Under the pieces are notes generated by a model. The model did not search any database and was not told the DNA's origin. It worked only from the letters and a program-made list of their open reading frames with translations. A stretch of 64,000 bases of DNA from Planctomycetia bacterium (GTDB lineage: Bacteria > Planctomycetota > GCA-002687715), in assembly GCA_005790545.1 (NCBI GenBank), contig SXUL01000036.1, positions 80,123 through 144,122 on the forward strand. Direction: 5' to 3'. Positions 53,376 through 63,902 of the stretch are shown in pieces. Within the stretch, counting starts at the first letter, position 1. Every line of letters begins with the position of its first letter. Both the position numbers and the translations under genes were made by a program.

Positions 53376-54629
53376 TCAGTGATCGAGAACAACGATCACG
53401 GATTCGCCCACATCAGGGTTGCCCTCGGCCGCACGCAAATGCACCGCGCGGAGGGATTCGATGGCGCCGAGAATCTCGTCGGCCACCCGTTGTGCGGGAG
53501 GGAGCAAGAAGACTTCCCAGCCTTGTGGAGGCTGAGGACGCACTGCATTGGCAGTCCACTCGAGCTTGCCCCGACTGGCCGCGGCAAGCAGTGCCGTCTC
53601 CATCGTTTGCAGCGGCTCCGCGCGCTGAACGAGCAGCGCGCGCACAGCCTCGATCGCAGCGGGCCCTTCAGCCACATAGAGGCGCCGTGTCTCGCTGCCG
53701 CGTACTGCTCCCGGTTCGGAAACCGCGCGCTTCGCCACCAGTTGCGCCTTCGTGCTGGGGACATCGGCATCCAGCGACTCCACGCTGAGGCCACGACCGG
53801 GCTTGCCAGCGCCATCGATCACGGAGATAGCGGCGCGTGCGTCTGCAACGAACGACTCGAAGGCGCGCGCACCGGATGCCACCGCTGCGTTGCAACGTGC
53901 GAGTTCGCGCTCGGACAGCGTCCGCTCGGGCGTAGCTGGCTCTGGAATGCTCTCGGCCCGTGCACGCTCCTGGATGAGTCCCGCTTCGCAGGAAAAACGC
54001 ACACTCAGGCCGTCGTCCGTGGTTCGGCGCGGCAGCGTGAACGCGCGCGTGAGCATCGGCGCGCCAACCAGCGGAGCATTCTTGCGACGCAGGCCTGCGT
54101 GCGGTGCGCGCTTCTCGTCCGCTTCTTGATGGGCGTCCTGTTGCCGCGCGCCGTCAACACCAACTCCGCCTCCGGGGCTGTCCTCGGCAAGGCGGCCAAG
54201 GTCTTTGCTCCTCCCCTCTGTCGTGAGCGTCTCTCCCTGACCGGCTTCCGACCCCTCGGCAGTCACGCTCGGCGCAGGATCACCTGTCCATTCCGAGGGG
54301 CGTGACAGGAGCTCCACCACCCAACTTGTGAGTCCGACCACTGCGACGAGCACCGCAGCCCTCCGCAGCAGCGGGAAATAAGGGAAACGGCGACGCGCCG
54401 GGCGCAGCGCTCCCTGAAGGCGTCGAACCACGTCATCCGCAACAGGCGGGATGGCAGCCCTCCTGAGCTCCGCGCGCTGGCGCGCAAAGGCGCTGCTTGC
54501 GCTCCGACACGCCGCGCAATCGGTCAGATGCTGCTCGAGACGTGCCGCGTCCGCGGCATCCAACCGGCCATCGAGCGCAGCGCTCGAGAGCTCGCGGAAG
54601 GGCTCGCACGGATGCTCTTTCATGCGCAC
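53376..54629 (-). CDS. membrane-spanning anti-sigma factor (zf-HC2 type) with large C-terminal extracytoplasmic domain
   Basis: N-terminal 'HLTDCAACR' zinc-finger anti-sigma motif, one TM helix (AAVLVAVVGLTSWVVELL), then about 290 aa periplasmic region. Overlaps the ECF sigma gene stop by a few nt (translational coupling). Confidence 0.65.
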   Translation of the reverse strand: MRMKEHPCEPFRELSSAALDGRLDAADAARLEQHLTDCAACRSASSAFARQRAELRRAAIPPVADDVVRRLQGALRPARRRFPYFPLLRRAAVLVAVVGLTSWVVELLSRPSEWTGDPAPSVTAEGSEAGQGETLTTEGRSKDLGRLAEDSPGGGVGVDGARQQDAHQEADEKRAPHAGLRRKNAPLVGAPMLTRAFTLPRRTTDDGLSVRFSCEAGLIQERARAESIPEPATPERTLSERELARCNAAVASGARAFESFVADARAAISVIDGAGKPGRGLSVESLDADVPSTKAQLVAKRAVSEPGAVRGSETRRLYVAEGPAAIEAVRALLVQRAEPLQTMETALLAAASRGKLEWTANAVRPQPPQGWEVFLLPPAQRVADEILGAIESLRAVHLRAAEGNPDVGESVIVVLDH

Positions 54630-55189
54630 TCTCCCGAGAGCAGTTGGCGCAATCTCTCGCGCGCGCGAAAGAGCCGCGAGCGCACTGTGCCGGGCGGGAT
54701 TTCGAGAATGAGTGCGATGTCCTCGTAGCTCCGGTCATCAATGTCGCGCAGGATGAGAATGGCGCGCAGTTCCTCGGGCAACTCTCGGAGTGCGTTCAAG
54801 GCGCGGCCGTGCTCCTCTTGCAACATGAGCGATGCACCGGCGTCCTCCGTCACAGCGGGTTCGGGATGATCCGTGGGACCGTCGCCGAGAGTTTGGGTCA
54901 CATTCGGGCGGGCCTTGCGCGCGCGCGCCGCGGACACCACTGTGTTGTGCCCAATACGGCAGAGCCACGTCGAAAAACTGCTCTCGGAGGTGAAGCTCGC
55001 GAGCCCCCTGAAGGCCTTGAGCCAGGTCTCCTGACAGAGGTCGAGAGCGAGTTCGGGGTCGCGGGTCATGCGCAGAATGAAGGCGTGCAAGCGATCGGCA
55101 TGGAGTTTCACCAAGGCCGTGAATGCCTCCTCCGACCCCTGCTGCGCGGCCTTCAGGAGTCCCGCTTCAGAGTGGATTGCGTCACCCAA
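54620..55189 (-). CDS. RNA polymerase sigma-70 factor, ECF subfamily
   Basis: 189 aa. Region 2 'FTALVKLHADRLHAFILRMTRDPELALDLCQETWLKAFRGLASF' and region 4 'LPEELRAILILRDIDDRSYEDIALILEIPPGTVRSRLFRARERL'. Confidence 0.85.
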   Translation of the reverse strand: MGDAIHSEAGLLKAAQQGSEEAFTALVKLHADRLHAFILRMTRDPELALDLCQETWLKAFRGLASFTSESSFSTWLCRIGHNTVVSAARARKARPNVTQTLGDGPTDHPEPAVTEDAGASLMLQEEHGRALNALRELPEELRAILILRDIDDRSYEDIALILEIPPGTVRSRLFRARERLRQLLSGECA

Positions 55190-55228: not shown

Positions 55229-55504
55229 TCAGCAGCGCACGAGGTCGATACGGTTGGGGCGCGTCTTTGCCACCAGCCATGTCGTGGATGAACCGCCTTC
55301 CCGGTCGGGCCAGCGCAACGCCTTCAGCCCCTTCTTGAAGCGCGCTTCTCCGGGCTGAATGGAAACTTCCGTCTCTTCTTCGCGAATAACCGCGTAGCGG
55401 AAGCGGATGGAGTCATCATCCGTGGGGCCGAACCAGGTGAAGTTCGCCGCGGCCGAATCTGACTTCGGATCAGGACCGAGATGGGGCTTGAAGCCTGCGT
55501 TCAT
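55229..55504 (-). CDS. hypothetical small protein (91 aa) inside the microcompartment gene cluster
   Basis: ORF with high third-position GC consistent with local coding. Sits between the last shell gene and the ECF sigma gene on the same strand with 21 and 39 bp spacers. No similarity recognised. Confidence 0.35.
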   Translation of the reverse strand: MNAGFKPHLGPDPKSDSAAANFTWFGPTDDDSIRFRYAVIREEETEVSIQPGEARFKKGLKALRWPDREGGSSTTWLVAKTRPNRIDLVRC

Positions 55505-56131: not shown

Positions 56132-57121
56132 TCACCTGCGGCGGCGAGGCCGCTTCAGAGAACCGGCACCGGTATCGCCGCTCGAAGGTGCATCCCAGAC
56201 GATTTCGAAGGACTCGTCCGCGCGGGTACTGGCCGCTGGGGCCTCAGAGCGCGGAGCTGGAGTCGATGCAGGCGCCGGAGCAGGCGCTGGTTCCGGCAGG
56301 GTGCGCGCTGGTTCATCCCACACGGGGATGAAGTCAGGTTCTGGCGGCGCTTCGGGAGCCGCACTCGGAGCGGATGCCGCGACATTCGGTTCACGTGCAT
56401 CCTCGCCACGCGGTGCAGGACCACGCTCGCTGCCGAAGCGGTCGCGGCCACGGCCACGGCGTCCACGGCGGTCACCACGCTCCTCACGCGGTCCACCCTC
56501 GCCGCGTTCTTCGCGCGGCCCATTCACGCCACGCTCTTCACGGGGTCCGCGGTCTTCGCGCGGCCCGCGGTCTCCACGCTCCTCACGGGGAGCACGGTCT
56601 GCGCGCGGCCCGTTATCGCCGCGCCCTTCGCGCGCCCCGCGGTCGCCACGTTCCTCACGAGGCCCACGCTCTTCGCGCGGACCGCGATCATCGCGCTCGC
56701 GCCCTGCATCGCGGCCGTCTCTCGGTCCGCGTCCACCACGCTCGCCTTCGGGCTCGCGTTGAGAGCCTTCCTGCCCGAAGCCTCTTTCGGCTGCCCGTGG
56801 CGCCACCGCGATGCCGCGACGTCCAGCAGGCATCTCGGGCACTTCGTCTCCGCCATCCTCCGCCGGTGTCATGAAGCAACTCACCACGCCTACAGCGGCG
56901 CCAGCGACCGGCAGGTCCTTCGGCAGATCGAAACGATCGCCAAGGGGTGCGAGGGCCACGAGCACCAGATCTCCGGCACCTGCACCCGCGCGGTCGACAA
57001 CCACGAGTGCGCCGGTCCACTCCACCTCATGCTCGGGTTCAACGAGCAGGAATCTCAGGCCTTCGAAGGCCGGGTGGACCTTCGCCAATTCGACTTCACA
57101 CTGCACTGTTCCGATGAACAC
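56132..57121 (-). CDS. bacterial microcompartment vertex protein (BMC-P, EutN/CcmL/PduN fold) fused to about 240-aa low-complexity repeat tail
   Basis: Residues 1-85 'MFIGTVQCEVELAKVHPAFEGLRFLLVEPE..GALVVVDRAGAGAGDLVLVALAPLGDR...AAVGVVSCF' match EutN/CcmL. This is followed by about 10 nonamer repeats (GPREERGDR and variants), two 'F-x-VWD-x-P' motifs and a poly-Arg C-terminus. Confidence 0.75.
   Translation of the reverse strand: MFIGTVQCEVELAKVHPAFEGLRFLLVEPEHEVEWTGALVVVDRAGAGAGDLVLVALAPLGDRFDLPKDLPVAGAAVGVVSCFMTPAEDGGDEVPEMPAGRRGIAVAPRAAERGFGQEGSQREPEGERGGRGPRDGRDAGRERDDRGPREERGPREERGDRGAREGRGDNGPRADRAPREERGDRGPREDRGPREERGVNGPREERGEGGPREERGDRRGRRGRGRDRFGSERGPAPRGEDAREPNVAASAPSAAPEAPPEPDFIPVWDEPARTLPEPAPAPAPASTPAPRSEAPAASTRADESFEIVWDAPSSGDTGAGSLKRPRRRR
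56390..56760 (-). repeat. imperfect 27-nt tandem repeat array (about 10-12 units) inside the BMC-P gene, encoding GPREERGDR nonamers
   Basis: Plus-strand units recur with 27-nt period, e.g. 'cacgctcctcacgcggtccaccctcgc', 'cacgctcttcacggggtccgcggtctt', 'cacgctcctcacggggagcacggtctg', 'cacgttcctcacgaggcccacgctctt'. Confidence 0.7.
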
Positions 57122-57137: not shown

Positions 57138-57767
57138 TCACCGATTCTCGCGGCCCGAGATGGACTCCAGAGCCACAGTCACTGCCTTCACCGCCTCCCG
57201 GATCGCGGATTCCGTTCCGCCGAGATAGAGCCTTCCGAATGCACCGGAGGACTGCATCTCGATCAATTTGACGGGAGCGGCCTTTTCCGCCTCGTTGGCG
57301 GCAATGGTTGCGTAGGCGGCGGGGTGAACCTCCAGAATGTAGAGGGTCTCGCCGCCGAGGATCATATCGCCGAAACGGATGCGGTTGATGAGCTGGGCCT
57401 GGTCGGGGTCGAGGTTGGTGATGATCTGCGAACTCATCACGCGCGGGCGCAGCCGATCCTCTTCCTTGAGGCCGAGGCTCGCGAGCATGCGCGCTCCTGC
57501 CTCGCGCACCTCAGCCTGTGAGTCCGAGTGAAGCTCCAGAAGCCCGAAGGCCCGCTCCACCACCTGCAAACCGGGACGCACATCATTGCTCTTGAGCGCG
57601 ATATCGGTGAGCCGGTTGATCGCGATGCCCGGAGCCACTTCGACAAAAAGCGAGGCCTGACCTTGCACCGGCAGGAATCCTCGCGCGGTGGTTCCCACGT
57701 AGGCCGCGAACGCGGGCTGCATGCTGTCGAGGAAGGTGTACGCCCTGAGTTCGATGCCCGCGGACAT
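57138..57767 (-). CDS. bacterial microcompartment shell protein, permuted tandem BMC-domain (BMC-T, PduB/EutL-like)
   Basis: 209 aa with two circularly permuted BMC units. 'APGIAINRLTDIALKSNDVRPGLQVVERAFGLLELHSDSQAEVREAGARML' parallels PduB '..GVLMADTALKSANVEVV......ILVISGDSGAVRQAV..'. The second unit is 'GETLYILEVHPAAYATIAANEAEKAAPVKLIEMQSSGAFGRLYLGGTESAIREAVKAV'. Confidence 0.65.
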   Translation of the reverse strand: MSAGIELRAYTFLDSMQPAFAAYVGTTARGFLPVQGQASLFVEVAPGIAINRLTDIALKSNDVRPGLQVVERAFGLLELHSDSQAEVREAGARMLASLGLKEEDRLRPRVMSSQIITNLDPDQAQLINRIRFGDMILGGETLYILEVHPAAYATIAANEAEKAAPVKLIEMQSSGAFGRLYLGGTESAIREAVKAVTVALESISGRENR

Positions 57768-57781
57768 GGGCAGTGGAGCTC

Positions 57782-58075
57782 TCAGACTTCGCCGTCGCCT
57801 TCAGGCTGCGGCAGGATGGACTCGACCTGTTCGTGCGGACGCGGAATGACGTGCACGCTCACAAGCTCTCCGACGCGACGCGCGGCAGCGGCGCCGGCAT
57901 CGGTGGCAGCTTTTACTGCACCGACTTCGCCGCGCACCATCACGGTGACGTAGCCGCCACCGATCTTCTCCTTGCCGATGAGGGTCACCTGTGCGGCCTT
58001 CACCATGGCGTCGGCAGCCTCGATGGAACCCACGAGTCCGCGGGTCTCGATCATTCCCAGTGCGATCTTGCTCAT
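57782..58075 (-). CDS. bacterial microcompartment shell protein, single BMC domain (BMC-H, PduA/EutM/CcmK-like)
   Basis: '[81 protein letters not shown]' is near-consensus PF00936. Confidence 0.92.
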
Positions 58076-58120
58076 CGTCGCAGCACCTCAAGCGGGGGCA
58101 GCTCGCCCGCGCGCCACGCA

Positions 58121-59635
58121 CTATCCTCCCCGCTCCGCGCCAGCCGACAAGCCCCGCGGCCCGTTTCCCGCCCGGCGTTCCAAAGCCGCGCGGATGATGG
58201 CTTCCAATTCAGCCGGAGAATGGTGTTCGCCGGGCATGCGCGCCAGGGGGTCCCCAAGCAGGCTCGGGCGTTCCAAGGCAGCCGCTTTCTCGGGCTGGGG
58301 CCAGGGTGAACCGGCTACGGAGGATGCAGGCGTTGCCAACTGGGGCCAATCCGAGAGCGTGTCCCCCTTCCTCCACGCCGCATTCGCCCGCGCCAGGCGC
58401 TTCACGTTGATGAGGTGCTGAGGCCCCACGTTGTCGGAAGTGATATTGCCTCCAAAGGAGCCACAGCCGAGAGTCATCGAAGGAAAGAGCCCGCTGGCTG
58501 CCCCCACGGCACCGAGGGATGTCGGCGCATTCAGGATGATGCGATTCACCGGCTTCTCGAGGGCGAAGGCCCGGATGATGGCCTCATCGCAGCAGTGCAG
58601 GCCGAGCGTGTGCCCTCGTCCGCCGAGCGCAAGAATATCGATGCAGAGCCGGCAGCCCGCCTCGTGCCCATCCACGGCATAGAAGGCAAGCACCGGCGCC
58701 AACTTCTCATACGAGAGTGGATGGCCCGGCCCGAGCCCCGCTGCGCGCGCAACCAACACGGTGGTGGCCTCGGGCACGCGGAAGCCGGCCATGGCGGCAA
58801 TGCGCGCCGCGGACTGCCCGACGACATCGGGATTGGTGCCGCCGTCACGCGCGAGGATGCGCTCGAGCAGAGGCGTTTCTTCAGCCGAGAGCAGATGCAC
58901 ACCACGCGCCACGAGTTCGCGCAGCAACGCTTCTTCTACCGGCCGGTCGCAAACGATGGCCTGCTCGGAAGAGCAGATGGTGGAGTTGTCGAAGGTCTGG
59001 CTGGTGACGATGGCGCGCGCAGTCTCCGCGATATCGGCAGAACGGTCGACATACACCGGCACATTTCCGGGGCCCACGCCAAAGGCCGGTTTGCCGGATG
59101 AATACGCCGCACGCACCAGGCCCGAGCCGCCGGTCGCGAGAATGAGATTCACTTCGCGGTCGTGCATCAAAGCCTGAGTGCCTTCGAGAGCCACATGCTC
59201 CATGCAGAGCGCCCAATCCTCGGGAGCCCCGGCAGCGACGGCAGCATCGTGCGCCACACGAATAGCCTCAGCGATGCACTGCTTCGCGCGCGGATGCGGC
59301 GAGGCCACCATGGCATTGCGCGACTTCAGGCAGCAGATGGCCTTGTAGAGCGCCGTACTCGTGGGATTCGTCACGGGGATGATGGCCGCCACCACTCCGA
59401 AGGGTGCGGCGATTTCCATCACGCCGCGTTCCTTGTCCTCGCTCAGCACTCCGCACGTGCGCATCCCGGCGATGGCTTGCCAGAGTCCTCGCGTCGCAAA
59501 GCGGTTCTTCACCGTCTTGCTCTCGACCCGCCCCATGCGCGTTTCCTCGACAGCCAGCGCGGCGAGACGCGCACTGGCTGCGTGCCCCGCTTCCACCACT
59601 GCGGCCGCGGCGCGATCGATGGCCTCCTGATCCAT
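58121..59635 (-). CDS. CoA-acylating aldehyde dehydrogenase (EutE/PduP family) with C-terminal linker plus probable encapsulation peptide
   Basis: Start at Met 59635 ([18 protein letters not shown]...) preferred. The ATG at 59830 would overlap the divergent peptidase gene. Catalytic Cys in '[14 protein letters not shown]'. NAD/CoA-binding '[12 protein letters not shown]', '[13 protein letters not shown]'. C-terminal Pro/Ser-rich linker then amphipathic helix '[18 protein letters not shown]'. Confidence 0.9.
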
Positions 59636-59823
59636 GTGCTGGAGGCGGAGGAAGGCGCGGCGTGCGCGAGCCGCCCGGTCCCGGGCATCCGCGATGGACA
59701 GGAGATCCTTGTGTCCGTTTTCCGCCACGCGTCGATCCGCCGCGAGTCTACCAGTGCAACGCTTTCCGGCGCGCGAGGGCCGGGCTATCGTCGGCGCCGC
59801 ATGTTGCTCATGGAGATCCGCCG
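59636..59823. promoter_or_regulatory. divergent intergenic region between the microcompartment operon (minus) and the M16 peptidase gene (plus); candidate promoters
   Basis: 188-bp non-coding gap between two divergently oriented start codons. On the minus strand it contains 'GGAAAGCGTTGCACTGGTAGACTCG' (GGAAA-N16-GACTC), loosely resembling an ECF-type -35/-10. Speculative. Confidence 0.3.
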
Positions 59824-62532
59824 ATGCCACGCCTCGTCCTCGCCCTCCTTCTCCTCCACGGAGTTGTCATGACCCAGTCGTCGCGCCCCGCGCTCGCCAT
59901 CGAGCGGTACGTGCTTCCGAACGGCCTCACCGTCATCCTCCATGAAGATCACGCGCTGCCCATCGCCGCGGTGAACATCTGGTACCGCGTCGGCAGCAAG
60001 GACGAGGTTGCGAAGCGCTCGGGCTTTGCACACCTGTTTGAGCACCTCATGTTCATGGGCACCGAGCGCGTGCCGCAAGGCCGCTTCGACGAGATCATGG
60101 AAGCGGGCGGTGGCAGCAACAACGCCACTACTTCCCAGGACCGGACGAACTACTTTGAATCCGGCCCCGCGGAGATGCTCCCGACGTTGCTCTGGCTCGA
60201 AGCAGATCGCATGGAGGATCTCGGCCGCTGCATCACACAGGAGAAACTCGACCTGCAACGGGACGTGGTGAAGAATGAACGCCGCCAGTCCTACGAGAAT
60301 CGACCTTATGCGCGCGCATGGCTTGAATTGCCCGCGATGATGTATCCCGCGGGGCATCCCTATGACCACTCGGTCATCGGCAGCCATGAGGATCTCGAAG
60401 CCGCGAGCGTCGAAGACGTGCGCGACTTCTTTGCCACGCACTACGTGCCCGCCAACGCGGCCTTGGTGGTCGCCGGCGATTTCGATCCTGTCGCAACGAA
60501 GGAGCTCATCGCGAAACTCTTCGGCACCCTCGCTGTGGGCAGAAAGCCGACCGCGGCGCCGATCCCGGTGCCGGTGCAACTCGATCGCATCATCCGCCGC
60601 AGCATGGAGGACAAGGTTCCGGCCGCACGGGTCAGCATGAGCTTCCACTCGCCGCGTCATTTCGCACCCGGCGACGCGGAAGCCGATCTCGTCGCCAGCC
60701 TGCTCGGAGAAGGCGCCGCCTCGCGGCTTGAGCGCGTTCTCGTGCAAGAACGCCGCCTCGCGCAGAGCGTCTCGGCGAGCCAGCAAAGTGGCTTGCTCTC
60801 GTCCATGTTCATGGTCTCAGCCTTGGCCATGCCTGGCGTGAGTGCCGCCGACCTCGAAGCCGCCATGGACACCGTCTTGAAGGATGCGCTGAAGGATGGC
60901 TTCAGTGTCGCGGACGTGGAGCGTGCTGTTTCACGCGCAGAAGCCGCATATGCCGCGCAGATGCAGGAACTCCTGACGCGCGCCGACCTCCTGAACCAGT
61001 ACGAGATGGCCTTCGGCAATCCGGATGGGTTCGAGCGCGACCTTGCGCGCTACCGCACCGCCACTGTCGAGAGCGTGAATGCCACCCTCCGCAGCATCAT
61101 CACTCCCGGTCAGCGTGCGGTGATGACTGTCCTGCCTGAAGGCACAACGGCAGAGGCGGTCCGGAGCGCGCGGGACACGCGGCCTGGCGATCTCGCCACG
61201 AAGGCATTCGTGCCGGCCGTTCCGGAGTGCTTCAAGGTTGGCGGTATGGAAGTCTGGCTGCTCGAGCGCCATCAGGCGCCGCTTGTTTCGCTGGCGCTCA
61301 GCCTGCCGCTCGGCAGCAGCGCTGACGCTCCCACACGCGCAGGTCTCACGGCACTCACGTGTTCGCTCATGCACGAAGGGGTGCGCGGCAATGATGCTGC
61401 CGACTTCGCCGTGGCTCTCGAGCGCCTTGGCGGTGCCGTGTCCGTGAAGGCCGGCAAGCGCCAGTCCGTGGCGGGAATGCTCGCGCTTTCGCGCAATGTC
61501 GATGCCACCTTCGACCTCCTCGCGGATCTCCTGCTGCGCCCGACGCTCGGCGAGCAGGATTTCGAGCGCGTGAAGGCCCAGCAACTCGCCGGCATCGAGC
61601 AGCGTGCCAAAGACCCCGCGACGATCGCGACCCTGGTGGCGGCACGACGCCTCGCGGAGGAACGCGGACGCAGAGCTGACCCCGCGAACGGCTATCTCAC
61701 GACCGTGAGCGGTCTCACGCACGCCATGGTTCGTGAACGCCACGCCAATGTCGTCGCGGCCCTCGGCGGCGCACGCATCGTGGTCTGCGGTGACATCACC
61801 AGGGATGCACTCGAAGCGACTCTGAAGCGCCAGTTCGGCGCCTTGCCCGTTGTCGCAACGCCGGCACGCGAGAAGGCCGCTGACCCCTTCGCAACGCGCA
61901 AGCTCTACATCGTCGATCGGCCCGATGCGCCGCAAACAGTGATCCGCTTCCAGCACGACGCCCCGGCGCTGGGTTCAGCATTCGATGCGCCGCTCCAACT
62001 CGCCAACACGGTCTTCGGTGGCAGCTTCACCAGCAGGCTTTCACAGAACCTCCGCGAGAAGAATGGCTTCACCTACGGGGCCGGTTCACGCGTCTCCCAG
62101 GATGCCGATGAAGGCGTGTTCGTGGCCACCTCCAACGTGCGCACGGAAGTCACAGGCCCCGCCATCCGCGAGTTCCTCGCGGAATTCCAGCGTCTCTCCA
62201 AGAGAGACTTCACGGTGGAAGAACTCGCGAAAGCGAAAGCCGCCGAACGCACGGACTTGGTACGGACCTTTGAGGAAGTCAGCGCGACCTCGGGGGCGCT
62301 GCTCCTCCCGTTGGTCGCCGGACGCGGCCCCGGCCATCTCGGTGAATACGCCGCGCTTGCGGCAGCCACGGCTCTCGATGCCGTGAATGCTGCAGCGGAT
62401 GTGCACATGCAAGGCTTCCCCGGCGTTCTGGTGCTCGTCGGCGATGCCAAGACCATCCTCGCGCAACTCGAAGGCATCGACCTTCCCGTGCCCGAGTGGT
62501 GCGACGCGGACGGCAACCTCATCAAGCGCTGA
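59824..62532 (+). CDS. M16-family zinc metallopeptidase (pitrilysin/insulinase-like), tandem M16 + M16_C units, secreted
   Basis: Start at ATG 59824 (MPRLVLALLLLHGVV.. signal). Inverted zinc motif 'HLFEHLMFMG' (HxxEH) plus downstream Glu; a second inactive M16 pair. 902 aa. The upstream 140 codons of the ORF track overlap the aldehyde dehydrogenase gene in antisense. Confidence 0.85.
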   Translation: MPRLVLALLLLHGVVMTQSSRPALAIERYVLPNGLTVILHEDHALPIAAVNIWYRVGSKDEVAKRSGFAHLFEHLMFMGTERVPQGRFDEIMEAGGGSNNATTSQDRTNYFESGPAEMLPTLLWLEADRMEDLGRCITQEKLDLQRDVVKNERRQSYENRPYARAWLELPAMMYPAGHPYDHSVIGSHEDLEAASVEDVRDFFATHYVPANAALVVAGDFDPVATKELIAKLFGTLAVGRKPTAAPIPVPVQLDRIIRRSMEDKVPAARVSMSFHSPRHFAPGDAEADLVASLLGEGAASRLERVLVQERRLAQSVSASQQSGLLSSMFMVSALAMPGVSAADLEAAMDTVLKDALKDGFSVADVERAVSRAEAAYAAQMQELLTRADLLNQYEMAFGNPDGFERDLARYRTATVESVNATLRSIITPGQRAVMTVLPEGTTAEAVRSARDTRPGDLATKAFVPAVPECFKVGGMEVWLLERHQAPLVSLALSLPLGSSADAPTRAGLTALTCSLMHEGVRGNDAADFAVALERLGGAVSVKAGKRQSVAGMLALSRNVDATFDLLADLLLRPTLGEQDFERVKAQQLAGIEQRAKDPATIATLVAARRLAEERGRRADPANGYLTTVSGLTHAMVRERHANVVAALGGARIVVCGDITRDALEATLKRQFGALPVVATPAREKAADPFATRKLYIVDRPDAPQTVIRFQHDAPALGSAFDAPLQLANTVFGGSFTSRLSQNLREKNGFTYGAGSRVSQDADEGVFVATSNVRTEVTGPAIREFLAEFQRLSKRDFTVEELAKAKAAERTDLVRTFEEVSATSGALLLPLVAGRGPGHLGEYAALAAATALDAVNAAADVHMQGFPGVLVLVGDAKTILAQLEGIDLPVPEWCDADGNLIKR

Positions 62533-62792
62533 AGCTCTGCCTTCTTCTCCTGGCGCGGCCCGCAAACGCCGTGCGCTGCTTGTGGCGGGGGATCGCTCTA
62601 CGCGGCACTGCGCCGCCTGCGCCGTGAGTGGAGTCCCGCTGAGCAGTGCCTTCGAGTGCATCCGAGCGGCTCTGCGAAGCGGGATCACCCCCGAACAGAG
62701 CAGGCGTCACACCCGCGCTGCGGTTGATGGCAGACCTCCACGCTGCGCCGCCTGCGCGCTGCTCGCGACGGGGGCGTGCGCGTCACTGGCGC

Positions 62793-63902
62793 TCACCAGC
62801 GCCCGCGCTGCACGCTCACACCCTGCACCAGCGCAAGCACCAGCATCGAAACAAGGAGAGATGAACCTCCGGCGGAAATGAACGGCAGCGGCAAGCCCTT
62901 GGTGGGTGCCAGCGCAACAGTCACGGCCATGTGCGCAAAGGCCTGCGCGCCGAGGAGTGCCGCGGCGCCGGCGCAGAGCGTGCGCGCACTCAGCGGCCGC
63001 GCAGCCGCCCCCACACGACAAATGAGCAGAACAAAGGCCATTTCGAGCAGCACGAAGAGAGCGCTGCCGACAAAACCCGTCTCTTCCGCAATCTCGGCGA
63101 AGATGAAATCGTTGTGGTGATACGGCAGGCGGCCGGACTGGACGCAAGGCCCCTCTCCCAACCCGTGCCCGAACAGGCCCCCGTTGCCGACGGCCGTCAG
63201 CGACTGAGCGAGCTGATAGCCGGCTCCCGAACGCTGCGAGGCCGACATGTTCTCGATGTTGATGGTGCTCGCGATGCGCTCTTTCTGGTACGGCTCCAGC
63301 AACATGCCGCCAGCGAGAAAGAGCGCGAGCGCGGCAGCGGCAGTGCTGAAGAGGAGCGGTTTCCAGCGCGCGCCTCCCGCGATGATGACTGCCAGCGTGA
63401 GGGGAACGAACATGAGACTGGTTCCGAGATCCGGCTGCACGAGGATGAGCCCTGTCGGCAGCAGCCCCACAACGAGCACAGGCAACCACTCATGGAATTC
63501 CGCACGCGCACGCTGCGCGCGGTAAAGCTGCGCGAGCATCAGCAGCGTGAAGAGCTTCATGAACTCGGAAGGCTGCAGACCTCGACCGAGAAGTGGCAGC
63601 CAACGCTGCGATCCGTTGATGACTGGTCCTGCCACCTTCACCAGCACGAGCATTCCGAGGCCGACGCCGTAGAAAACCGGCGCCATGGAAAGCACGCGTG
63701 GAAGCGGCAACAGCAAGAGCAGAAAAGACACCGCCCCACCGAGCAGGAGCCAGCGCTCCCATGATGTGGCCAGCTCCTCACCGCCGCGGCCGGCAGCACC
63801 TTGCATGAGCCAACCCAAGAGAAGCAGCAGGCCCCCCGCCAACAGCAAGGGCGCATCGAGGTTGCCGAGGCGGCGGATGGGCTCCGGGAGTCTCACCACC
63901 AA
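62793..63902 (-). CDS. rodA: SEDS-family peptidoglycan glycosyltransferase (RodA/FtsW)
   Basis: 369 aa, 10 TM helices. Conserved 'LPTGLILVQPDLGTSLMF', 'GGLFGHGLGEG', 'HNDFIFAEIAEETGFVGS', 'GLPLPFISAGGSSLL'. ORF-track start is a TTG; a GTG/TTG start is used. Confidence 0.85.
   Translation of the reverse strand: MVVRLPEPIRRLGNLDAPLLLAGGLLLLLGWLMQGAAGRGGEELATSWERWLLLGGAVSFLLLLLPLPRVLSMAPVFYGVGLGMLVLVKVAGPVINGSQRWLPLLGRGLQPSEFMKLFTLLMLAQLYRAQRARAEFHEWLPVLVVGLLPTGLILVQPDLGTSLMFVPLTLAVIIAGGARWKPLLFSTAAAALALFLAGGMLLEPYQKERIASTINIENMSASQRSGAGYQLAQSLTAVGNGGLFGHGLGEGPCVQSGRLPYHHNDFIFAEIAEETGFVGSALFVLLEMAFVLLICRVGAAARPLSARTLCAGAAALLGAQAFAHMAVTVALAPTKGLPLPFISAGGSSLLVSMLVLALVQGVSVQRGRW

Follow-up and report, generated by a model that had tools for sequence, protein, structure and literature searches.

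A probable C-terminal encapsulation peptide on the aldehyde dehydrogenase of a planctomycete microcompartment locus

We analysed 64,000 nucleotides of DNA from a Planctomycetia bacterium (contig SXUL01000036.1; this whole stretch is called the window below), whose minus strand carries a gene for an acylating (CoA-dependent) aldehyde dehydrogenase (ALDH) beside genes for the shell of a bacterial microcompartment (BMC). The last ~81 residues of this enzyme are probably a C-terminal encapsulation module, made up of a disordered tether, an amphipathic helix and a short hydrophilic tail. An earlier note on this DNA had proposed an encapsulation peptide (EP) at this place, and our analysis supports that interpretation, from which we infer targeting to the shell. 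Here we describe the anatomy of the tail, its conservation and the selection acting on it, along with its operon context and its homology to tails found on other type I ALDHs that are linked to shells. The positions of all features are collected in Table 1.

Anatomy, conservation and selection of the ALDH tail

The ALDH matches Pfam PF00171, and its top NCBIfam match is TIGR02518 (538 bits, E 2e-161, residues 7-447), although the equivalog cutoff of this model, 620 bits, is not reached. Among solved ALDHs, 5j78 and 3k9d were matched at E 1e-126 to 1e-128. All 52 aligned sequences have the catalytic Cys252 (within 'STICSSEQ'), as expected of an active enzyme and not of an inactive paralogue. 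The longest version of the open reading frame (ORF), counted from the farthest GTG, spans 58121..59830 on the minus strand. However, the GTG at 59728 is likely the true start, because a 90%-identical homologue (P0001) begins at the same residue ('MAENGHKDLL'); the N-terminus of P0002 also agrees with this start. There is no N-terminal extension, as the protein aligns to solved ALDHs from residue 6-8 onward.

At the other end, alignments to the solved acylating ALDHs (5j78, 3k9d) and to AdhE ALDH domains stop at residues 446-454 (in the 535-residue numbering), and that to TIGR02518 stops at 447. This leaves a C-terminal extension of ~81-88 residues, close to the 'about 90' of the earlier note, and the strings that the note quoted from this tail were all found, in the stated order, on the minus-strand ORF. 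The note had proposed an alignment with non-microcompartment enzymes as a check that the extension is extra. In free AdhE-type enzymes the ALDH domain stops short of the tail, and no solved structure was matched by the isolated tail (best E = 1). The tail aligned to no catalytic or oligomerisation segment of free ALDHs, and a helix is predicted within it.

We ran AlphaFold2 on the 52-sequence alignment and obtained a model with a mean pLDDT of 81.5, in which the core scores mostly 80-99. Residues 467-502 fall below 50 and have no secondary structure, in agreement with the Pro/Ser/Ala-rich, poorly structured linker described previously. A helix is predicted at residues 505-519 (15 residues, pLDDT 60-70) with disorder on both sides, and residues 523-535 are disordered. 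The earlier note was thus right about a helix near the C-terminus, although 16 further residues come after it. No cysteine occurs in residues 455-535.

Conservation was measured as identity to the query across a clade of 31 sequences. The linker is variable in length and its identity to the query is only ~0.2. In the helix, conservation is 0.65-0.84 for S504, L508, I511, I512 and L516 and 0.58 for A515, with L508, I511, I512 and L516 occupying the i, i+3, i+4 and i+8 positions on a single apolar face; P499, ahead of the helix, is conserved at 0.90. Conservation of the terminal fragment (residues 520-535) is confined to the four closest homologues. A second conserved island, S474-P475-W476, stands within the linker at 0.81-0.87 among neighbours at 0.03-0.3, and is visible in the alignment as 'SPW[DE]xP'.

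Codon comparisons were made against the closest related locus (L081) and a more distant one (L083). Relative to L081, the 447 codons of the core carry 27 non-synonymous and 173 synonymous changes, and the linker (residues 448-497) carries 23 and 12, whereas the pre-helix and helix (residues 498-519) carry 0 and 6, a contrast between helix and linker that is significant by Fisher's test (p = 0.004). The comparison with L083 gave 5 non-synonymous and 10 synonymous changes in the helix against 29 and 12 in the linker (p = 0.015). At the level of codons, these counts show that the helix is under purifying selection, whereas selection on the linker is relaxed. In addition, a profile built from the helices of homologues, with the query left out, matched the helix at 20.1 bits (E 1.5e-5). 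This was the sole match among the 604 six-frame ORFs of the window, so that the same profile found no second EP-tagged cargo in these ORFs. With the helix kept in homologues while the linker drifts, the feature is beyond chance as judged from the alignments. It is extremely improbable that the extension is not a real protein and reflects an earlier true stop or a high-GC open-frame artefact. At 66% GC, the window contains numerous spurious ORFs, and GC3 over the short tail does not separate the frames. However, the tail is in frame and uninterrupted by a stop, independent assemblies show its protein sequence to be conserved, and the changes within the helix are synonymous only.

The earlier note had also called the helix amphipathic and recommended secondary-structure and helical-wheel checks. 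These agreed with it: on the wheel of the predicted helix, the five apolar residues L508, I511, I512, A515 and L516 lie within a 140-degree arc, so that the conserved positions share one face, while E507, E509, R513, E517 and three alanines lie on the opposite side. The best 11-mer has an amphipathic moment of 0.52-0.54, which is the 94th-99th percentile of the 11-mers in the ALDH. The 11-residue core alone is clearly amphipathic; the helix as a whole is amphipathic but modestly so, with a moment at the weak end of validated EPs.

Comparison with known encapsulation peptides and with related tails

An EP, as defined by Kinney 2012 and Aussignargues 2015, is a segment of about 15-20 residues that is predicted to be an amphipathic alpha-helix, is tethered to the catalytic domain through a flexible linker of low conservation, and belongs to an enzyme encoded together with shell proteins; the tail of the query shows these features, its amphipathicity being at the weak end. 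C-terminal EPs on type I microcompartment ALDHs have already been catalogued, and the tail described here is probably a further example. In the type I enzymes (IPR013357 branch) the EP is found at the C-terminus and in type II enzymes at the N-terminus (Sutter 2021, PMC8217296), and it has been reported that ALDH EPs may occupy either terminus, with linkers of 4-91 residues (Aussignargues 2015, PMC4594438). The earlier note regarded a C-terminal position as typical of several non-PDU types, which is in line with the type I ALDHs of both papers. Our enzyme shares with those of the EUT2, EUT3, GRM1, GRM6, FRAG5 and FRAG8 loci (PMC4594438, PMC8217296) the terminus on which the EP is placed and, as far as a best NCBIfam match to TIGR02518 below its cutoff can tell, the enzyme family. 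The layout is also alike, a variable linker followed by a helix of ~15 residues, as are the motif [ST]xx[DE][ILV]xx[IV][IV]xxx[LFM] and the profile matches to distant tails, and the ~49-residue linker falls inside the published range. In contrast, the clade of the query differs from these EPs by an LPGEH[FH]S signature before the helix, by the SPW island and by the 16-residue terminal fragment.

Of individual tags, the N-terminal EP of PduP from Salmonella enterica (MNTSELETLIRTILSEQL) has a near-identical core with common hydrophobic positions. Residues 5-14 of the validated PduP tag (ELETLIRTIL; PMC5405515) align to our helix with 6 of 10 positions matching, and the PduP-like pattern has one occurrence in the 96,613 six-frame ORF residues of the window. 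Residues E7, I10 and R11 of PduP have been shown experimentally to matter for EP self-assembly (PMC12339742), and their equivalents here are E509, I512 and R513. Both tags are carried by a CoA-acylating aldehyde dehydrogenase of a metabolosome. However, they stand at opposite termini, PduP being a type II ALDH with an N-terminal tag and ours a probable type I ALDH with a C-terminal one, and Sutter 2021 argues that the type I and type II extensions arose independently (PMC8217296). The polar face of our helix is also alanine-rich, which lowers its hydrophobic moment relative to that of PduP. A further likeness is to the C-terminal EP of CcmN from the beta-carboxysome (PMC4594438), where an amphipathic helix past a long variable linker is followed by a hydrophilic fragment of 5-15 residues, as here, although the carrier protein is unrelated. 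Carboxysomal EPs are described in PMC12339742 as functionally distinct from metabolosome EPs.

Thousands of protein relatives were returned by our searches, and the best 120, which mostly have tails of 70-130 residues, were examined. A single-protein search of the genome collection gave no related loci, but an alignment-based scan did, and tails were taken from 70 loci. The relatives are mostly metagenome-assembled genomes (MAGs) of Planctomycetota. The tails from the 70 loci, which come from Bacillota, Ignavibacteria, KSB1, Gemmatimonadota, Acidobacteriota and Planctomycetota, share the terminal motif given above, while LPGEH[FH]S is peculiar to the clade of the query. The helix profile of this clade found tails at E <0.01 in Gemmatimonadota (18.7 bits), KSB1 (15.2), Cytophagia (13.6) and the acidobacterial locus L062 (9.6), with weaker matches (E >0.01) at the equivalent place in tails from Ignavibacteria, from other Acidobacteriota and from some Bacillota. 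Reciprocally, a profile from the distant non-planctomycete tails alone fell on residues 504-516 of the query (empirical p ~0.003). In a neighbour-joining tree of the cores, the query is in a clade in which nearly all members have the helix.

Tail architecture is very labile among the related loci, which include L011, L013, L023, L024, L028 and others. We observed tails with the helix only, with the helix and a four-cysteine motif, and with a long linker and a four-cysteine domain as in the MIC3 type of locus, as well as tails without a helix (L003) and short proline-rich tails (L009). In Acidobacteriota, the tails have an internal helix and then a folded 'DFVxEDDV...TPSARD' domain. This diversity, and the acidobacterial domain in particular, means that other functions are possible, and the tail might serve the enzyme itself, in oligomerisation, regulation or docking of a partner enzyme, independently of any microcompartment. 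We consider this very unlikely. The tail is disordered and is set off from the core by a variable tether, free AdhE-type enzymes and solved ALDHs do not have it, and the gene lies within a conserved shell operon. Moreover, L060 is the one relative that combines a short tail (23 residues) with the absence of nearby shell genes (none within 10 kb), and its tail is without the helix. Many relatives without nearby shell genes, such as those of Ignavibacteria, still carry the helix, and clean non-microcompartment controls are few. Dispersed (FRAG) shell loci have been described in the Ignavibacteria phylum (2021 catalogue, PMC8217296) and could account for the helix in these genomes.

The four-cysteine tails raise a different alternative. 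In the sister clade, several members (for example P0035, P0036, P0038, P0039, P0041 and P0045) have a helix of the same kind followed directly by 'GCPFGRCADCPP...C..C', and the ALDH of MIC3 has been described as a linker plus a ~40-residue four-cysteine domain with no detectable EP (Sutter 2021, PMC8217296, Supplementary Data 2). The helix of the query could on these grounds be a remnant of a larger helix and four-cysteine metal-binding module that has lost its targeting role, but we consider this very unlikely. The helix is under purifying selection in the absence of cysteines (no non-synonymous change against six synonymous ones relative to L081), and ~25 cysteine-free homologues retain it. 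A cysteine-free helix also ends many distant shell-linked ALDH tails, and the helix alone is therefore more likely the ancestral state. In addition, the helix profile does not detect the MIC3-proper tails.

The four-cysteine motif is also present in L018, L036, L040, L041, L054 and L066, whose MIC3-proper tails resemble by eye those of the sister clade. We considered whether their domains open with an identical helix (LSTAEIQNIMAHAG), which is plausible by eye, but rejected this because the helix profile gave no match to them at E <=10. The combination of helix and four cysteines is accordingly claimed, from the aligned tails, solely for sister-clade members such as the six named above.

Several observations weigh against the tail of the query being an encapsulation peptide. 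The confidence of AlphaFold2 in the helix is moderate, at 60-70. The best 11-mer moment (0.52-0.54) is below those of PduP (0.60-0.61), EutC (0.69-0.79) and PduD (0.71-0.82), and the Eisenberg moment over the AlphaFold 15-mer, 0.15, is unremarkable and under the shuffle mean, because R518 and R519 sit on the apolar side. In a subclade of the relatives (L003, P0007, P0016) the tail stops immediately ahead of the helix although the same shell genes are retained, and a further planctomycete type (L009 and P0048-like) has a short proline-rich tail and no helix. Because these two groups are without it, the helix is not indispensable in all lineages and, as judged from the tails compared, is dispensable in some. 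Finally, MIC3, which is the nearest catalogued locus type, is reported without a detectable EP.

Possible mode of action of the tail

We infer that the helix would act in binding, condensation and packaging. The disordered tether of ~49 residues (455-503) would present the amphipathic helix (504-519), and the face formed by L508, I511, I512, A515 and L516, together with the charge pair E509/R513, would allow the helix to bundle with other copies and so to condense a cargo core. Alternatively or additionally, the helix may attach to the luminal side of the shell, in the groove that separates its tiles. The products of the genes immediately downstream, BMC-H, BMC-Tdp, BMC-P and BMC-Ts, would then form the shell around the ALDH. 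Condensing and shell-binding roles have both been described for PduP- and PduL-type tags (PMC12339742, PMC11157265).

The balance between these two roles could be different. It is possible, though less likely, that the helix is mainly a self-association element that condenses the ALDH into a cargo core, and that the shell is recruited otherwise, for example through the SPW island or the extended BMC-P. EPs of the PduP type assemble into trimeric bundles and drive condensates via I10 and the E7/R11 salt bridge (PMC12339742), and the equivalents of all three residues are present in the query helix. The second conserved island in the linker, and the shell genes that the helix-less subclade still has, also point in this direction. 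However, self-association is compatible with shell binding, and EPs of this kind have been reported to bind the tile groove as well (PMC11157265).

More speculatively, the encapsulation module may be a two-part docking device, composed of the EP helix and the SPW(D/E)xP island, in an unusually minimal metabolosome that has ALDH only. We regard this as improbable. The island resembles, in the sequences compared, the conserved '(I/L)VW(D/E)AP' motif that ends the ~240-residue extension of BMC-P, and this extension could itself be a shell-tethered scaffold. If both Trp motifs bind one common shell site, the pentamer would be a built-in scaffold, similar to CsoS2, that organises cargo. The helix-less subclade (L003, P0007, P0016) keeps a Pro-Trp island at the equivalent spot (KPW or RPW, not SPW), and if two-part docking is true its enzymes could still be packaged via this island.

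C-terminal EPs on type I microcompartment ALDHs are an established principle, and a specialist would not be surprised by one here. Less expected are the conserved Trp island of the ALDH linker, the long disordered extension of the pentamer, which ends in a similar Trp motif, and the variety of tail architectures in related planctomycete loci. The EP would mark the five-gene cluster as a functional metabolosome, the only recognisable cargo of which is the CoA-acylating aldehyde dehydrogenase. Residues 498-535 are a concrete candidate peptide with which cargo might be loaded into a minimal shell of four proteins, from a planctomycete-like lineage that has been little studied. There is also a gap in the catalogue, in that MIC3 is reported without an EP, yet an EP-like helix is plain in the clade of the query and in its sister clade.

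Shell operon, locus type and neighbouring genes

The shell that the earlier note had called adjacent to the enzyme is encoded by four genes, for BMC-H, BMC-Tdp, BMC-P and BMC-Ts, which lie directly downstream of the ALDH gene on the same minus strand (Table 1). We found no further shell genes in the 64-kb window, so that BMC-H and BMC-P are each present once. BMC-H is 89-93% identical in L001-L003. The PDB matches of BMC-Tdp are 5v76 (E 6e-80), CcmP (4ht5, 3e-74) and CsoS1D (3f56, 1e-53), and those of BMC-Ts are 3nwg (6e-39) and PduT (3n79, 3e-33). The order ALDH, BMC-H, BMC-Tdp, BMC-P, BMC-Ts is kept in L001, L002, L003, L081 and L083, of which the first three come from MAGs labelled Deltaproteobacteria, Isosphaeraceae and Planctomycetota, respectively, and looser versions of it occur in many other Planctomycetota MAGs.

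Table 1. Features of the ALDH gene, its tail and the surrounding locus, in window coordinates.
Feature	Coordinates	Strand	Basis or remark
Acylating (CoA-dependent) ALDH gene	58121..59728	minus	535 aa + stop; GTG start at 59728; ORF list
Catalytic core, residues 1-454	58367..59728	minus	Ends of alignments to solved ALDHs and AdhE; AlphaFold2
Pro/Ala/Ser-rich, poorly conserved linker, residues 455-503 (49 aa)	58220..58366	minus	pLDDT, alignment, codon comparison
Ser-Pro-Trp island (S474 P475 W476) within linker	58301..58309	minus	Conservation in 31-sequence clade
Putative encapsulation-peptide helix, residues 504-519	58172..58219	minus	AlphaFold2, conservation, codons, HMM, PduP likeness
Terminal fragment, residues 520-535 + stop codon	58121..58171	minus	pLDDT <50; alignment
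BMC-H shell hexamer, 97 aa	57782..58075	minus	Pfam PF00936, E 5e-30; 45 nt downstream of ALDH stop
BMC-Tdp (CcmP/CsoS1D-like permuted tandem-domain trimer), 209 aa	57138..57767	minus	PDB matches
BMC-P pentamer, EutN/CcmL domain (residues 1 to ~85) + ~240-aa extension	56132..57121	minus	Pfam PF03319, residues 1-79
BMC-Ts (PduT-like tandem-domain trimer), 200 aa	55526..56128	minus	Two PF00936 domains
91-aa ORF between BMC-Ts and ECF sigma factor	55229-55504	minus	Also in L081, L083
ECF sigma factor + zf-HC2 anti-sigma factor	53376-55189	minus	After shell genes and 91-aa ORF

As judged from its gene content, the locus (ALDH, BMC-H, BMC-Tdp, BMC-P and BMC-Ts, followed by an ECF sigma factor) does not correspond exactly to any catalogued type, including those of the other type I ALDHs. 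It is best described as an uncatalogued relative of the MIC3- and FRAG-type planctomycete loci and not as a member of MIC3. Like MIC3 of Planctomycetes, it has an incomplete core with ALDH as the sole core enzyme, a long C-terminal linker on that ALDH, and a shell set with BMC-H, BMC-P, BMC-Ts and a CcmP-like BMC-Tdp. In contrast to MIC3, the tail of the query has no cysteine and a clear helix instead of the four-cysteine domain, the PF04909 amidohydrolase is not adjacent, and there is one BMC-H and one BMC-P where MIC3 has two of each. Instead, the locus is flanked on one side by an M16 peptidase gene and on the other by the 91-residue ORF and the genes for the ECF sigma factor and the anti-sigma factor. 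The gene set also resembles that of the Haliangium ochraceum-like (HO) type (Hoch_5812-5816), which we excluded because the HO ALDH has an N-terminal EP, whereas our enzyme has no N-terminal extension and its EP-like helix is C-terminal.

The extension of BMC-P is charged. It contains repeats rich in Arg, Glu and Gly that resemble 'GPREERGDR', a stretch rich in Pro and Ala, and two copies of the motif 'VWD(E/A)P', and it finishes with the polybasic sequence 'KRPRRRR'. Its orthologues in L001-L003 have quite different charged disordered regions, yet share an end in which '(L/I)VW(D/E)A(P/A)' is followed by a polybasic C-terminus, which in L001 and L002 reads 'GDT.KRK.PRRRR'.

We also noted that the last 16 codons of the ALDH are identical in DNA to those of L081, and that the intergenic spacer is identical or nearly so. 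Synonymous changes relative to L081 affect 12-18% of the codons in BMC-H and BMC-Tdp against 36% in the ALDH (57138-58171, minus strand). We considered whether the 3' end of the ALDH gene holds an RNA or DNA element but rejected this, as the fold is no better than that of shuffled sequences (z = 0.70) and the site has no Rfam match and no promoter or terminator consensus. Likewise, no promoter or terminator consensus was found inside the ALDH-shell cluster, and no Rfam match in the region. Strong codon bias of the shell genes or a recombined block may account equally well for the identity to L081.

The 91-residue ORF has no Pfam or NCBIfam match, but its 4 non-synonymous and 23 synonymous changes relative to L081 point to purifying selection. 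The ECF sigma factor and anti-sigma factor that follow it are probably the regulator of the microcompartment locus. A sigma factor occupies the equivalent position in L001, L002, L008, L081 and L083, in the last two of which the anti-sigma factor was confirmed as well. The anti-sigma factor is fast-evolving, with 37% non-synonymous codons relative to L081. On the other side of the locus, a large M16-family peptidase gene lies upstream of the ALDH and is divergent from it, with a RodA/FtsW gene beyond (59900-63902). In L083, a cluster of mreC, an mreD-sized ORF, PBP2 and rodA comes next. The microcompartment locus is therefore embedded beside cell-wall elongation genes, in a conserved synteny.

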